Source: a virus (Duplodnaviria > Caudoviricetes). From it: a DNA stretch of 64,000 nucleotides. The stretch lies in IMG/VR virus record IMGVR_UViG_3300033075_001021; one strand, given 5' to 3'. Shown here in pieces: positions 3,267 to 60,672 of the stretch. The notes below the pieces were generated by a model. That model was not told where the DNA came from and ran no database searches. It saw only the letters and a list, made by a program, of their open reading frames with translations. Positions within the stretch are counted from its first letter, which is position 1. Each line of letters opens with the position of its first letter. Made by a program: the position numbers and the translations under genes.

Positions 3267-3827
3267 TTAATAATAAATAAATTCTTCATCGACAAATGTT
3301 TCCTCAAATTTTTCCATCCCTTCTTTAAACTCTTTAGTTTGCATGTATGCATTAAGAGCCCTCCACCCCTTAAGTCTTTCCCATTCTTTTTTCTTAATTA
3401 CATACCTAACGTCTTCTGACCAACCTTTTTGCTCAACTATTTTAGCGGCTTCTTTTTCACCATCTTGGAAAGAAAAGAATGTATAATATTTCTCAGCCAA
3501 TCTTAAAACCTCATCTTTAGTTAAAGTTTTCTTTTTAAGATTTAACCCAATGTTTTGTTTTACTTTATCTAAAATGTTTAGCTTCTTGGCTTCAGAATAA
3601 GCGCCTTTATAATTTGTTTGAAAGGCTTTAAGACTTCGGCAATCTTTGGCTAAAAATAAGATATCTTCTTCAGTGTATTGCTTACGCTCACGTTTAGGTT
3701 GTGAAGTATTCTTCCAACCAAAAGTATCACATAACTTCTGAATCAAACCTTTACGCTTTGCCGCAGAATACGCCGCTGGATTATCCTTTTTGAATTCTGT
3801 TAATGACTTATATTTTGACTTTTCCAT
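3267..3827 (-). CDS. helical-repeat putative DNA-binding protein
   Basis: N-terminus paralogous to adjacent ORF; no nuclease motif. Confidence 0.6.
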   Translation of the reverse strand: MEKSKYKSLTEFKKDNPAAYSAAKRKGLIQKLCDTFGWKNTSQPKRERKQYTEEDILFLAKDCRSLKAFQTNYKGAYSEAKKLNILDKVKQNIGLNLKKKTLTKDEVLRLAEKYYTFFSFQDGEKEAAKIVEQKGWSEDVRYVIKKKEWERLKGWRALNAYMQTKEFKEGMEKFEETFVDEEFIYY

Positions 3828-20126: not shown

Positions 20127-21200
20127 TTAGTGTTGTGTTAATAAAATGGTTTTAACATCTTTCCTAGCTGCTGCATCGTCACCATCATTCGGTGTAACCA
20201 ATACATGCCATTTCATTAATTTTGGGTTTTCTGGTGTTTTTAATAATTCAGCATAAGTAATAATATCTTTAAGTGGTAAATTGAAATATTCCGCTACTTT
20301 TTGTTTTAACAGTTGTTTATCTGAAATCTTAGCTAAATCTAACCCCTTAAATAATTCAGTTGGTACCCAAACAGATATTTTTTGTTTGTCAGTATCAATT
20401 TTTGAGCGCTCTTTTTTAGAACCACCAAGTGAGAATGCAACAGAACCAATGTTTGAAGACTTTGCAACATCGGCCATTTTAGTATAAGCATCATCAATTA
20501 TGTTAAAGCCTTCTTCTTGTAATTTCTTAATAACCTTTTCAGCAATAGACACATACTTTTTTGTAAAAAAATCACCAGAATCATTCCATCTTAAAATAAT
20601 CTTAGATTCATAACCTTTAAGTGCTTTATGTTTTGTACATATTTGCTTAAGCTCAACGTACAACTGATTTTCATATTCATTTGGATAATTCAATAAATAA
20701 TTCAAACGACGTGTCATCAAATCATATGAATTTGGGTATTGAATATATCGACCTTTTAAAGCATAACAAATAACACGACATTCACCAGCACCTGGGCAGG
20801 TATTGATTACATAAAATCTATTTTTGCTGATATCATAGGCAATTCCTCTGAAAGCTGGAACACCTGTTTTGTAGAAGTATTCATTGGGTTGACCACTCTT
20901 TAACATCTTTTCATTGGTGTTGATTAATGAATTTGGTTTTTCTGTGATTCTTTTGGCAAAATCTTCTATATCTAATTTACCACCCTTAAATAACTTTGAT
21001 TTTGAATGAATAAACGGCATCTTTGGTGAAAACTTTTCTCTTTCACCATAACCCTTGTTTGCGTTTGAAATTACCCTATTAAGATAGCTTTTTAATTCTT
21101 CTGGAGAAAGACATTCTTTTTGAACATCAGCAAAGTCTTTTTCCCAACTAATCTCATTAATATATTGGTTAATGGCCTCGTTTAATAACTTTTTAATCAT
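20127..21200 (-). CDS. Gp88-like protein
   Basis: TCPGAGEC..CYA, RWNDSGDF, YTK. Confidence 0.7.
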   Translation of the reverse strand: MIKKLLNEAINQYINEISWEKDFADVQKECLSPEELKSYLNRVISNANKGYGEREKFSPKMPFIHSKSKLFKGGKLDIEDFAKRITEKPNSLINTNEKMLKSGQPNEYFYKTGVPAFRGIAYDISKNRFYVINTCPGAGECRVICYALKGRYIQYPNSYDLMTRRLNYLLNYPNEYENQLYVELKQICTKHKALKGYESKIILRWNDSGDFFTKKYVSIAEKVIKKLQEEGFNIIDDAYTKMADVAKSSNIGSVAFSLGGSKKERSKIDTDKQKISVWVPTELFKGLDLAKISDKQLLKQKVAEYFNLPLKDIITYAELLKTPENPKLMKWHVLVTPNDGDDAAARKDVKTILLTQH

Positions 21201-22092: not shown

Positions 22093-22164
22093 GAGCAGCA
22101 TGTGGGAGTCAAACCCACGCCCCCGACTTGGAAGGACGGTATGCTATCGTAACACCTATGCTGC
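22093..22164 (-). tRNA. tRNA-Gly(TCC)
   Basis: Cloverleaf, loop CTTCCAA. Confidence 0.85.
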
Positions 22165-22227: not shown

Positions 22228-22924
22228 CAAGATTGAGCTTAGCCGCCATTTTGTTTTAGGCTATCATTTATCTATGCACCAACCCGACCTCTCAGGGGAA
22301 CCGACACCCACCGCTAAATTATTTTGTTATTAACTTTTAAGTAAATTAAGTCACAATCTAATCCTTCAAGATGTAAACCAATAATTTCTTTTATTAGGTT
22401 TTTATCAATTCCGCACATAATTCTATCTGCCGAATTAGATGATTTATCAACCCATCTTAAATTTTTACTGCGATTATCGTTACGTTTTTTGTTTTTATGG
22501 TCTACCTCCCAACCTTTGGGTTTAATTCCATGAAAAACTTCTGCAACAATACGATGAACCCTAAACGTTTTATTTATTTTGTTAATTTTAATATCAATTA
22601 ACTCATAACCTTCACGTTGTTGTCTTTTTTTCAAAATTCTTCCAGTGATTCTATTTTTAATATCACCATTAGAAGAAACATCGTAATCATAATCTCTAAA
22701 TTGCTTCCAAATAACTGTTTTCATATTTTCTCTTTATAATAAATATAAAGAAATTTAGCGAAAACCGACACCTATGAAAAAAATGTCGGTTTTTTCAGGT
22801 CTGTTTGGCTTGCTACTTCTTTGGTGGTAACGGATTTTCGATAATTTACTGGTCCTCCCAAATTAGGTTCCGTAGTGGCGAACTTCCTCCAGCATTACTG
22901 CCAGCGATAGCTTCTCTTACCTTG
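22228..22924 (-). ncRNA. rnpB: minimal RNase P RNA interrupted by an HNH gene
   Basis: GAGGAAGTTCGCCA pairs with TGGCGGCT (P4); GCTATC/GATAGC (P2); GTAA-capped P3; AGATAAATGAT..AACAAAA 3' signature. Confidence 0.8.
22314..22724 (-). CDS. NUMOD4-HNH homing endonuclease
   Basis: YDVSSNG, RVHRIVA, VDHKNKKRNDNRSKNLRW. Confidence 0.9.
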   Translation of the reverse strand: MKTVIWKQFRDYDYDVSSNGDIKNRITGRILKKRQQREGYELIDIKINKINKTFRVHRIVAEVFHGIKPKGWEVDHKNKKRNDNRSKNLRWVDKSSNSADRIMCGIDKNLIKEIIGLHLEGLDCDLIYLKVNNKII

Positions 22925-23408: not shown

Positions 23409-23495
23409 TGGTGGCCCCGATGGGATTCGAACCCATGATGGTCTTGCGACATCAGTTTAAAAGACTGTTGGTATCAACCACTAACCGACGGAGCC
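23409..23495 (-). tRNA. tRNA-Lys(TTT) with long variable arm
   Basis: Loop CTTTTAA; variable arm TGTCGCAAGAC. Confidence 0.8.
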
Positions 23496-23547: not shown

Positions 23548-23999
23548 TTAAGTTTTTTGCTTTTCATTTAAGAATTTATACCAACCAAATTGTATTGCAG
23601 TTTTACGTCTGTGACAATTAGCACACCTAACATCACATTTATTAATCTCTGCGAATACTGTTTCTAACCTATAACCCTGTGATACTAATGTGCTAATATC
23701 TTTATATTTATTAGAATCATCTCTATGGTCAAATTCTAAAACAATTGGGTCAGTTTCACCACAATCAATACATGGATGGGTTGATAAATATTCAAATACT
23801 TTTATCCTAATTAAATCTCTATTCTTTCTATTTCGTTCATAAACATCAACCTTATGTTTTTCACGGTTATTGTTATAATACGCTTTAGATTTTATTCGAC
23901 TACATTCCCGACAAATAGTACTGTAACCATCACGTTTGGTTTTATTCTTATTGAAAAGAGCTAAGTCTTTTTCTTGTTTACAAATGCTACATATTTTCA
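23548..23999 (-). CDS. HNH endonuclease (tRNA-associated)
   Basis: CIDCGETDPIVLEFDH..CANCHRRKT. Confidence 0.85.
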
Positions 24000-24056
24000 T
24001 AATTCTATTTTTATATAAATATGTGGCTTTTAACAAAAAGACAATTTAAAAGCTTA

Positions 24057-24615: not shown

Positions 24616-24699
24616 GAGCCTTCGGCCAGATTCGAACTGGCGGGGGATTACTCCGCTCGCTTACAAGGCGAGTGCAATCGACCACTATGCGACGAAGGC
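24616..24699 (-). tRNA. tRNA-Thr(TGT) with long variable arm
   Basis: Loop CTTGTAA. Confidence 0.8.
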
Positions 24700-33385: not shown

Positions 33386-33473
33386 GTACCGCCGACGGGG
33401 GTCGAACCCGCACGTTCTTTTTCAGAACACCGCCTTGAAAGGGCGGCGACATAACCAATTAGTCGACAGCGGC
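33386..33473 (-). tRNA. tRNA-Glu(TTC) with long variable arm
   Basis: Variable arm GTTCT-GAAAA-AGAAC. Confidence 0.8.
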
Positions 33474-34360: not shown

Positions 34361-34448
34361 GCGGACCCTACGAGATTCGAACTCGCCTGTCAGATAAATC
34401 TGTTCTGGGTTGACAGCCCAGCGGCCACACCAAGCAGCCCCAGAGTCC
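34361..34448 (-). tRNA. tRNA-Asp(GTC) with long variable arm
   Basis: Variable arm CAGA-TTTA-TCTG. Confidence 0.8.
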
Positions 34449-39230: not shown

Positions 39231-39316
39231 GTGGGTCCACTCGGACTCGAACCGAGATTAACTGCTCGTCTCCACCTTGTAAGGATGGGATGTTTATCCT
39301 GTTACACCATGGACCC
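39231..39316 (-). tRNA. tRNA-Val(TAC) with long variable region
   Basis: Loop CTTACAA. Confidence 0.8.
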
Positions 39317-39893: not shown

Positions 39894-39981
39894 GAACCCA
39901 TGACAGGATTTGAACCTGTGGTGAGGGATAACCCTTACAGTTTTGCAGACTGTCATCTTCGGCCACTCGAATCACATGGGC
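39894..39981 (-). tRNA. tRNA-Cys(GCA) with long variable arm
   Basis: Variable arm AGGG-TTAT-CCCT. Confidence 0.8.
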
Positions 39982-59157: not shown

Positions 59158-59245
59158 TGGAGGATTGGGTGGGATTCGAACCCACGATGGTCTTGCGACA
59201 CTGGGTTAACAGCCCAGACTTTTCGGCCTCTAAAGCAACCAATCC
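59158..59245 (-). tRNA. tRNA-Asn(GTT) with long variable arm
   Basis: Variable arm TGTCGCAAGAC, CCA. Confidence 0.8.
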
Positions 59246-59627: not shown

Positions 59628-59806
59628 GAAAATAAAAGTATTTTTTAATAGTAGATATTCATCGATTGATAATTCTTTTGCTAAAATCATGTCAATCTTC
59701 TCAACATCTATATTCGGCGTATTAAGGATTTTGAATAAAACTTCTAATGTTTTATCCTTAGATACACCAGCATCTTTAAATGCCTCTATTAGTTTCTCTA
59801 TCATTG

Positions 59807-59888
59807 TTGTGCCCGTGGGAGTCGAACCCACCTTGTTCCGAAGAACCCACCGTATCAGGATGGTGCCTAAACCGCTCGACCAGAGCAC
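59807..59888 (-). tRNA. tRNA-Ile(GAT) with long variable arm
   Basis: Variable arm GTTC-TTCG-GAAC. Confidence 0.8.
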
Positions 59889-59894
59889 AATATT

Positions 59895-60041: not shown

Positions 60042-60133
60042 GGGCGCATGATGGGATTCGAACCCACGGTGTTTGATATAATCTCATTCTGGTTCACAGC
60101 CAGATTCCATCGACCACTAGGACAACACACGCC
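60042..60133 (-). tRNA. tRNA-His(GTG) with long variable region
   Basis: Loop CTGTGAA. Confidence 0.75.
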
Positions 60134-60580: not shown

Positions 60581-60672
60581 GCGGAAGCGGACGGATTCGA
60601 ACCCTCAGACGATATTGCTACCGCCCCACTGTTTTCAAGACAGGGCCCCGCACCAATGGGGTCAGCGCTTCC
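60581..60672 (-). tRNA. tRNA-Ser(TGA)
   Basis: Type II cloverleaf. Confidence 0.9.

Follow-up and report, generated by a model that had tools for sequence, protein, structure and literature searches.

Ribonuclease P (RNase P) RNA is the universal cellular ribozyme that trims new tRNAs. Its type T form, from Pyrobaculum and relatives, is reportedly about 200 nt long and is said to have escaped standard covariance models. Among the endonucleases of phages, I-HmuI of Bacillus phage SPO1 is encoded by a self-splicing group I intron within a protein-coding gene, and SegB of phage T4, a GIY-YIG enzyme encoded between genes of the phage tRNA region, promotes the inheritance of its own locus. Insertions closed by a helix also occur in genes of stable RNAs, for example as the intervening sequences of 23S rRNA, and endonuclease-bearing insertions have reportedly been seen in the rRNA of bacteria of the candidate phyla radiation (CPR). 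The locus described here comes from a 64-kb stretch of phage DNA (the window; record IMGVR_UViG_3300033075_001021, coordinates counted from its first letter). It consists of a miniature RNase P-like RNA gene, interrupted by a cassette that encodes an HNH endonuclease. The RNA is almost certainly homologous to bacterial-type RNase P RNA, and the interrupted gene is probably functional, either in one piece or in two.

Gene organization

The interrupted gene lies on the minus strand (22925–22227) within a tRNA array, between a tRNA-Lys gene (23195–23121) and the tRNA gene that follows at 22164–22094. Two RNA parts of 129 and 83 nt (212 nt in total) are separated by a cassette of 487 nt, so that the whole comes to 699 nt. 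The window DNA is low in GC and carries 56 tRNA genes according to ARAGORN (46 according to Rfam), every one of them on the minus strand. A preliminary description of the stretch had noted an open reading frame (ORF) for an HNH protein, a 9-bp inverted repeat, a duplicated sequence flanking the ORF and RNase P-like halves on either side; all of these were located, their positions agreeing to within 1 nt (Table 1). The locus is not an assembly artefact, since the identical HNH protein and the same interrupted arrangement occur in 11 contigs, from several samples that were assembled independently. Samples in which the phage is present are SRR32380203, SRR27686863 and JGI 3300033074. The longest contig bearing this HNH protein is 304 kb. 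The closest public relative for the locus, by blastn, is the uncultured phage LR745206.1, with a genome of 634,780 bp. Numbers with the prefix L in the text label other DNA stretches.

Homology to RNase P RNA

When folded by eye and by script, all members of the family display the helices P1, P2, P3, P4 with a bulged U, P5, a P7-like helix with one hairpin, P15, P16 and P17, together with a P6 pseudoknot formed by the strand after P5 and the loop of P17. In the window, P4 is AGT(T)CGCC, with the bulged U in brackets, paired with GGCGGCT, and P6 is GAACC/GGTTC. The conserved regions (CR) CR-I (GAGGAA plus P4), CR-IV (AGATNAATG) and CR-V (ACANAA plus P4') are all found, and GGGT occupies the place of the GGU in the P15/P16 loop. 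P18 is absent from the subfamily to which the window belongs. The specificity domain (P8–P14) is missing as such; the roughly 60 nt between the two P5 strands hold a P7-like helix of 5 bp and one small hairpin. The identity as RNase P RNA that the preliminary description had put forward is supported.

Uninterrupted forms of the gene exist in other huge phages. In LR745206.1, the sole match when the RNA was compared with GenBank phages by blastn, both flanks are contiguous and form an RNA of about 225 nt without insert (the blastn match covers the 5' flank). This and further homologues, on IMG/VR and metagenome contigs, are about 200–250 nt long. The uninterrupted members come from pattern scans (L007/L028, L031, L125) and from searches guided by the HNH gene (L344, L348, L350, L352, L354, L356, L364), with L268 in addition. 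The pattern scans of viral contigs, which used ATAGATARATGATAGC, GAACCTAANNTGGGAG, GAAGTAGC...ACAGACC and a 25-nt degenerate pattern, gave mostly chance matches, and only those in L001, L007, L028, L031 and L125 are real.

Covariation was assessed on a MAFFT alignment of eight uninterrupted relatives with a structure drawn by hand. Standard pairs make up 89.7% of the pair cells, against 28–44% with slid partners and 68.6% in shuffles, none of the 500 shuffles reaching the observed value. Changes on both sides are seen in 37 of the 55 pairs. P4, P5, the P6 pseudoknot and P7 are 100% paired; five of the seven pairs of P4 covary, and its bulged U is kept in every member. Among relatives P6 covaries, with the variants AAACC/GGTTT, CAACC/GGTTG, TTGCT/AGCAA and TCGCT/AGCGA.

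The relationship to cellular RNase P RNA is supported from both directions. A covariance model built from the eight uninterrupted phage RNAs alone (R1) matches the 5' half in the window with 74.1 bits (E 1.8e-16) and the 3' half with 58.5 bits (E 1.2e-12). It also matches bacterial rnpB genes from end to end (L341, 52.5 bits; L332, 46.6; L340, 43.5; L333, 30.5), and in L341 the match at 1896–2225 almost coincides with the RF00010 call at 1900–2228. A 27-nt phage pattern for CR-IV/P2'/CR-V has 12 matches in 596 Gb of prokaryote genomes (GTDB collection), seven of which fall exactly on the CR-IV/P2'/CR-V of RF00010 genes that score 139–282 bits. In the relative L344 the archaeal model RF00373 (RNaseP_arch) matches 3443–3631 with 26.1 bits, a significant score (E 5.7e-4) though below the threshold of 84 bits; the alignment covers P1–P4, J5/15, P15 and CR-IV/V and passes over the specificity domain. 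Moreover, two related huge phages that carry the mini RNA encode RnpA, the proteins being about 110 amino acids (aa) long with an RNR motif and above the PF00825 cut-off. One is in LR745206.1 itself (L362, 76444–76752, 49 bits), the other in the 483-kb IMGVR_UViG_3300027996_002186 (L363, 37476–37682, 45.7 bits).

The Rfam searches weigh against the assignment. At the Rfam gathering threshold the window yields tRNAs only and no RNase P RNA, the region 22150–23130 matches no RNase P or intron family in Rfam at E values up to 10, and the uninterrupted copy in L001 has no Rfam match at all in that range. Among the family members examined, RF00373 is the only Rfam model that gave a match. Neither tblastn nor the RNR motif revealed an rnpA gene in the 64-kb window, and a motif search of the same DNA gave no second RNase P-like RNA. 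The search with RNase P covariance models that had been put forward as a check turned out two ways: the Rfam models miss both the window and L001, and a match is reached only by way of relatives and of the custom model R1. That Rfam misses the window RNA can be explained by the reduction of its specificity domain to a stub and by the absence of P18. One could take the missing gathering-level match and the missing specificity domain to mean that this is an unrelated structured RNA of tRNA arrays, sharing motifs with RNase P RNA by chance. Such a coincidence is very improbable in view of the reciprocal end-to-end matches between R1 and RF00010 genes, the RF00373 match in L344, the same order of helices with two pseudoknots (P2/P4 and P6) and a bulged U, and the presence of rnpA in related phages. 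Homology to RNase P RNA rests on the covariation among the eight relatives, the R1 matches to verified rnpB genes, the RF00373 match and the two rnpA genes taken together.

The mini RNA of L268 (IMGVR_UViG_3300029288_000055) is found again in L337 (GTDB JBAZIW010000001.1), a metagenome-assembled genome labelled 'Candidatus Paceibacterota'. R1 gives 139.6 bits for each, and both are 362,763 bp long. The 'Paceibacterota' contig JBAZIW010000001.1 is probably a huge-phage genome that was binned as a CPR bacterium.

The HNH cassette

The cassette is inserted after the 5' strand of P16 and before the P17 hairpin, in accordance with the P16/P17 region named in the preliminary description. Its NUMOD4-HNH protein aligns with I-HmuI (PDB 1U3E) over residues 6–105 (E 5.8e-13), and the catalytic motif DH...N...N is intact in the ORF as VDH, NDN and NLRW. 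Non-coding DNA accounts for 76 of the 487 nt, with 72 upstream and 4 downstream of the ORF. The upstream part, or head, begins with hairpin 1, which is terminator-like, is present in the minimum free energy (MFE) fold and is conserved in the two other nested copies, L342 and L343; its 3' arm duplicates the sequence of the P17 loop. It is followed by the 5' arm of a 9-bp helix that closes the insert and by hairpin 2, likewise present in the MFE fold, whose 3' arm contains a purine-rich stretch before the ATG that is likely to be the ribosome binding site.

The inverted repeat that forms the closing helix was recovered by the repeat scan. In AT-rich DNA a 9-bp inverted repeat alone is unremarkable (the scan gave many repeats of 8–9 nt), yet this one covaries in two orthologous inserts. 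A transposon with 9-bp terminal inverted repeats and a 10-bp direct repeat was considered: the inverted repeat covaries rather than staying conserved, and there is no transposase, for which reasons an RNA helix is preferred over transposon ends.

I-HmuI-type HNH genes are classically borne on introns, which would favour a self-splicing (group I or group II) or tRNA-type intron that is removed with ligation of the halves. However, the non-coding part is too short for a group I core, Rfam contains no intron family that matches the region, and in eight further contexts members of the same HNH family are free-standing neighbours of the RNA gene. A group I intron was accordingly rejected, and an intron of any of these kinds is highly improbable.

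Two further pairings involve the head of the cassette. An alternative 8-bp hairpin at 22797–22775 of the minus strand (TGAAAAAA with TTTTTTCA; I15) overlaps the 5' arm of hairpin 1, and this arm, AACCGACA, can also pair with the native P17 loop at 22306–22299 (I13). Being mutually exclusive, the I15 and I13 pairings might act as an on/off switch for the formation of P6.

Conservation of the nested arrangement

Three nested copies are available for comparison, those of the window, L342 and L343. Nucleotide identity among them is 79–81% in the ORF and 75–85% in the RNA flanks, the 72-nt head being the most conserved part with 87–91%. Within the ORF, identity is 0.73–0.83 at first, 0.83–0.90 at second and 0.59–0.65 at third codon positions, a pattern which indicates purifying selection on the HNH protein and long divergence.

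The arms of the closing helix are CGCUAAAUU and AAUUUAGCG in the window, CGCUAAAGU and ACUUUAGCG in L342, and UGCUAAACU and AGUUUAGCA in L343. Three different Watson-Crick pairs occur at position 8 and two at position 1, and the changes in the 3' arm recode the last sense codon as Ile, Leu or Val. Hairpin 2 displays a compensatory exchange of A-U to C-G in L342. The helices that span the insert (P1, P2, P4, P6, P15 and P16) have canonical pairs throughout in each of the three copies despite their differing sequences: P2 reads GCTATC, TCTAAC or CTCATA, with the partner matching each time, and P6 reads GAACC, CAACC or AAACC with GGTTC, GGTTG or GGTTT. Looping out of the insert by the 9-bp repeat, as earlier proposed, is thus supported by compensatory changes in two orthologous inserts. 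Since both the insert-spanning helices and the closing helix keep their pairing through such changes, the interrupted gene appears to be functional. Pairing kept in three lineages is as predicted for selection on a ribozyme that works despite its interruption, and it would scarcely be expected if the gene had been dead ever since these lineages separated.

In its MFE fold (z = -5.0 relative to shuffles) the 705-nt window RNA retains P1, P3, P15 and P16 as well as the closing helix and both hairpins of the cassette. The mean pair probability of the closing helix is 0.59 in the window, 0.85 in L342 and 0.23 in L343.

Association of the HNH family with the RNA gene

A protein search returned 17 relatives besides the HNH protein of the window. 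All 11 distinct HNH proteins with readable DNA, that of the window included, are encoded no more than about 80 nt from a mini RNase P RNA gene, or inside one. Judged by these positions the family is dedicated to this RNA gene, the linkage being exclusive among the 11. Four arrangements are seen. In arrangement A the order is RNA, hairpin, HNH (L350/351, L352/353, L354, L356, L364); where the HNH gene is downstream in this way, the hairpins that follow the RNA gene are tighter and have longer U tracts than hairpin 1. In arrangement B the HNH gene comes first and the RNA 18 nt further on (L344–L347). Arrangement C is the nested one, at the same P16/P17 junction in the window, in L342 (79% aa identity) and in L343 (71%). 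In arrangement D, seen in L348/349 (1297–2153 in L348) and in L355 (873–1663), a window-type 5' half precedes the HNH gene, which is followed by an entire RNA of a second type. RNA genes without insert are found in L001, L007, L031, L125 and L268, so that the insert is polymorphic for presence and absence.

Arrangement D looks like the replacement of a gene end by homing. In L355 the 5' half runs through a repeat of the P17 loop type into the cassette, with no 5' arm, and this junction suggests that the direct repeat GGTGTCGGTT marks a site of recombination or cleavage by the HNH endonuclease. From the repeat and from the junctions in L355 and the window, we infer that the enzyme cuts insert-free alleles near the P17 loop sequence GGTGTCGGTT.

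Function of the interrupted gene

We lean towards a looped-out form of the functional interrupted ribozyme, made as a single transcript. On this model, a phage mini RNase P RNA gene in a tRNA array, with a type-A catalytic domain and a stub of about 60 nt for the specificity domain, would have been invaded at the P16/P17 junction by an I-HmuI-like HNH cassette. The cassette would be tolerated as a self-contained side arm and not as an intron. The parts of this arm would be the head hairpin, the 9-bp closing helix that joins the ribozyme halves, and hairpin 2, which may mask the ribosome binding site in read-through transcripts and so gate translation. With P1, P2, P4, P6, P15 and P16 formed across the insert, the RNA would be an active ribozyme, processing the phage's own pre-tRNAs with an RnpA encoded by the host or by a phage, and the insert would presumably stay attached instead of being trimmed off. 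The setting, with 56 tRNA genes on the same strand, is consistent with a role in pre-tRNA cleavage. The HNH mRNA may be part of the same primary transcript, or of one that starts inside the cassette. A wider proposal is possible but doubtful: that one unspliced transcript is both RNase P RNA precursor and HNH mRNA, and that the HNH homing system moves RNase P alleles or halves between co-infecting huge phages which have a complete RNase P (RNA plus RnpA).

Some observations run counter to a functional, looped-out ribozyme. Hairpin 1 is similar to the terminators found after the intact RNA genes of relatives and could therefore stop transcription past the 5' half. The orphan 5' halves in L348 and L355 still give 51–59 bits with R1, from which it follows that intact-looking halves can survive without a partner. 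Some of the conservation in the flanks could also be older than the respective insertion, should the cassette move by homing. The 64-kb window holds neither rnpA nor a second copy of the RNA. Thermodynamic folds of full-length L342 and L343 reproduce the ribozyme helices poorly, although little weight is given to these. Finally, CCA is found at or just past the 3' end in only 4 of the 56 tRNA genes in the window; most of the phage tRNAs would require CCA to be added, and a GGU-CCA contact would need this addition to come first.

An unlikely alternative is a ribozyme in two pieces. The 5' half would end at hairpin 1, or else an RNase III-type cut of the closing helix would remove the insert; the 3' half would be made with the HNH mRNA from a promoter in the cassette, and the two would assemble in trans via P1, P2, P4, P6, P15 and P16. 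A parallel is offered by 23S rRNA, from which helix-closed intervening sequences are cut out with no rejoining of the ends. That six helices bridge the break favours such an assembly, as does the homology of hairpin 1 to the hairpins after complete RNA genes (L350, L352, L354, L356, L364), and a head more conserved than the ORF would fit transcription signals. Bimolecular RNase P ribozymes are active in vitro (PMC6783828). However, hairpin 1 of the nested copies has a loop of 12–13 nt and only 4–5 U, mostly paired with an A run at the base of the stem. With its large loop and short, largely paired U run it would be a weak terminator, and it is not called by the terminator scan; nor does a promoter scan call a sigma-70-like promoter in the cassette head. 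A covarying closing helix would be unneeded if the halves were made apart, though it would fit excision by RNase III.

It is improbable, too, that the endonuclease simply broke the RNA gene, the halves looking intact because the event is recent or is re-created by homing, and the phage relying on RNase P of the host or on another copy. The persistence of orphan 5' halves in L348 and L355 is what such decay might leave behind. Against this reading, the cassette is as diverged as its flanks, also at third codon positions, and the full pairing of the insert-spanning helices in three lineages with differing sequences is not expected of a broken gene. Covariation of the closing helix and of the hairpin at the ribosome binding site would indicate selection on RNA structure that is specific to nesting. 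Nor did the motif search give another copy in the 64-kb tRNA region, the place of the RNA gene in relatives.

Feature positions and genomic context

Table 1. Positions of features in and around the interrupted RNA gene, in window coordinates
Feature	Position	Strand	Remarks
Promoter-like site	23109–23082	minus	TTGACA, 16-nt spacer, TATCTT; region directly upstream of RNA
49-aa acidic ORF	23075–22926	minus	Abuts the 5' end of the RNA
5' half of RNA	22925–22797	minus	129 nt; helices of manual fold all canonical; R1 match; blastn match to LR745206.1
P1 5'	22925–22921 and 22916–22914	minus	5' half
P2 5'	22911–22906	minus	5' half
P3 hairpin	22904–22889	minus	5' half
J3/4 and P4 5' strand	22888–22877	minus	5' half; with bulged U
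P5 5'	22875–22872	minus	5' half
P6 5' strand	22870–22866	minus	5' half; GAACC
P7-like helix	22862–22858 with 22824–22820	minus	Specificity-domain stub; encloses small hairpin 22855–22832
P5 3'	22816–22813	minus	Followed by J5/15 CAA
P15 5'	22809–22806	minus	5' half
P16 5'	22801–22797	minus	GACCT; last element before cassette
Cassette	22796–22310	minus	487 nt, in J16/17
Hairpin 1 (head hairpin)	22793–22761	minus	Arms AAAACCGACA / TGTCGGTTTT, 10 bp, 13-nt loop, 4-U tail (I6, 100% complementary)
Direct repeat, first copy	22772–22763		GGTGTCGGTT (repeat scan, D5)
Closing helix, 5' arm	22760–22752	minus	CGCTAAATT; perfect core of pair I1
Hairpin 2	22751–22731	minus	Just 5' of start codon (I18)
NUMOD4-HNH ORF	22724–22314	minus	136 aa, I-HmuI-like; HNH_3 E 2.7e-14, NUMOD4 E 1.7e-5 (Pfam)
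Closing helix, 3' arm	22320–22312	minus	AATTTAGCG; overlaps last sense codon and TAG stop
3' half of RNA	22309–22227	minus	83 nt; R1 match; CR-IV/CR-V block also locates bacterial rnpB
P17 hairpin	22309–22295	minus	Loop holds P6 3' strand GGTTC, 22302–22298
Direct repeat, second copy	22308–22299		GGTGTCGGTT
P16 3'	22290–22286	minus	3' half
J16/15	22285–22282	minus	3' half; GGGT
P15 3'	22281–22278	minus	3' half
CR-IV-like	22277–22266	minus	3' half; ATAGATAAATGA
P2 3'	22265–22260	minus	3' half
CR-V-like	22259–22248	minus	3' half; AAAACAAAAT
P4 3'	22247–22241	minus	3' half
P1 3'	22237–22235 and 22231–22227	minus	3' half
First tRNA downstream of RNA	22164–22094	minus	Rfam match, none by ARAGORN; anticodon by eye UCC (Gly)

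A near-identical copy of the 49-aa ORF precedes the RNA in L355, and in L125 the same place is taken by the end of an ORF with a similar C-terminus.

Many of the window tRNAs for amino acids that normally have a short variable arm (Lys, Thr, Glu, Asp, Val, Cys, Asn, Ile, His) are 83–91 nt long according to ARAGORN, which suggests introns or unusual extra arms (23409–23495, 24616–24699, 33386–33473, 34361–34448, 39231–39316, 39894–39981, 59158–59245, 59806–59889, 60042–60132). The gene at 60583–60672 (minus strand) is a selenocysteine tRNA according to Rfam (RF01852, 54.4 bits, threshold 47) and a tRNA-Ser with TGA anticodon according to ARAGORN. Between tRNA genes, at 23548–24036 on the minus strand, lies an ORF of 162 aa with CxxC and H-x-DD...CxxCH motifs typical of HNH/zinc nucleases; in Pfam it has no HNH match and only a weak one to APOBEC4_like (E 0.005). 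Just downstream of the tRNA block, at 20127–21200 (minus strand), is a gene for a GP88-family protein (PF17338, E 1.7e-17), which neighbours the locus in all contigs of the window's phage.

Significance

Full-text literature searches gave no description of a virus-encoded RNase P RNA, and the founding paper on huge phages has none in its main text either. Three things are new here: a nested I-HmuI-like gene whose closing helix covaries, an endonuclease family linked exclusively to a ribozyme gene, and rnpA in related phages. The last of these means that some phages may bring a complete RNase P holoenzyme for their own large tRNA sets. The four arrangements of the HNH gene (downstream, upstream, nested, and with half of the RNA gene replaced) form a natural series of selfish nucleases colonising RNA genes. 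The nested form amounts to a natural insertion experiment, in which a coding arm of 487 nt at J16/17 of a 212-nt ribozyme has been kept over long evolution. The locus therefore bears on the minimal size and the fragmentation of RNase P RNA, on the choice of substrates by a ribozyme without specificity domain, and on how translation and RNA folding can be reconciled on a single transcript; the mini RNase P RNA may also serve as a compact scaffold for engineered RNase P variants.

Comparison with known systems

The bacterial type A RNase P RNA (rnpB, RF00010; M1 of E. coli) has the same order of helices, P1-P2-P3-P4-P5 ... P15-P16-P17-P6, and the same bulged U in P4. Also common to both are GAGGAA in J3/4, GCAAG in J5/15, GGU in the P15/P16 loop, CR-IV AGATAAATGA and CR-V ACAAAA. 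The phage RNA is much shorter, however (about 212 nt against 350–400 nt), has a P7-like helix and one small hairpin in place of P8–P14, and lacks P18. The RNA of the window differs further in being encoded by a phage, in falling below every Rfam threshold and in being interrupted by a protein-coding gene. Type T RNase P RNA likewise keeps the catalytic domain with most of the specificity domain gone, but it belongs to archaea, its protein partners are archaeal too, and its P15 region is different.

The HNH protein has the same NUMOD4 and HNH_3 architecture as I-HmuI of phage SPO1, whereas its gene is not in an intron and its host gene is that of a ribozyme. The adjacent forms of the HNH gene (L344, L350–L356, L364) are comparable to SegB, as endonuclease genes in a phage tRNA region; in contrast to SegB, three lineages have the HNH gene nested in a structured RNA gene, with a closing helix that appears to be adapted to it. 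The nearest parallel to the nested form itself is in the helix-closed insertions of rRNA, which are also non-intron inserts at a surface helix or a junction of a functional RNA, bracketed by an inverted repeat, and some of which carry a nuclease gene. As in these, the ends of the cassette pair with each other, and the pairing is kept by compensatory changes. Unlike the rRNA and CPR insertions, the cassette is found in a phage, encodes an HNH nuclease, and lies at the J16/17 junction instead of the tip of a hairpin.

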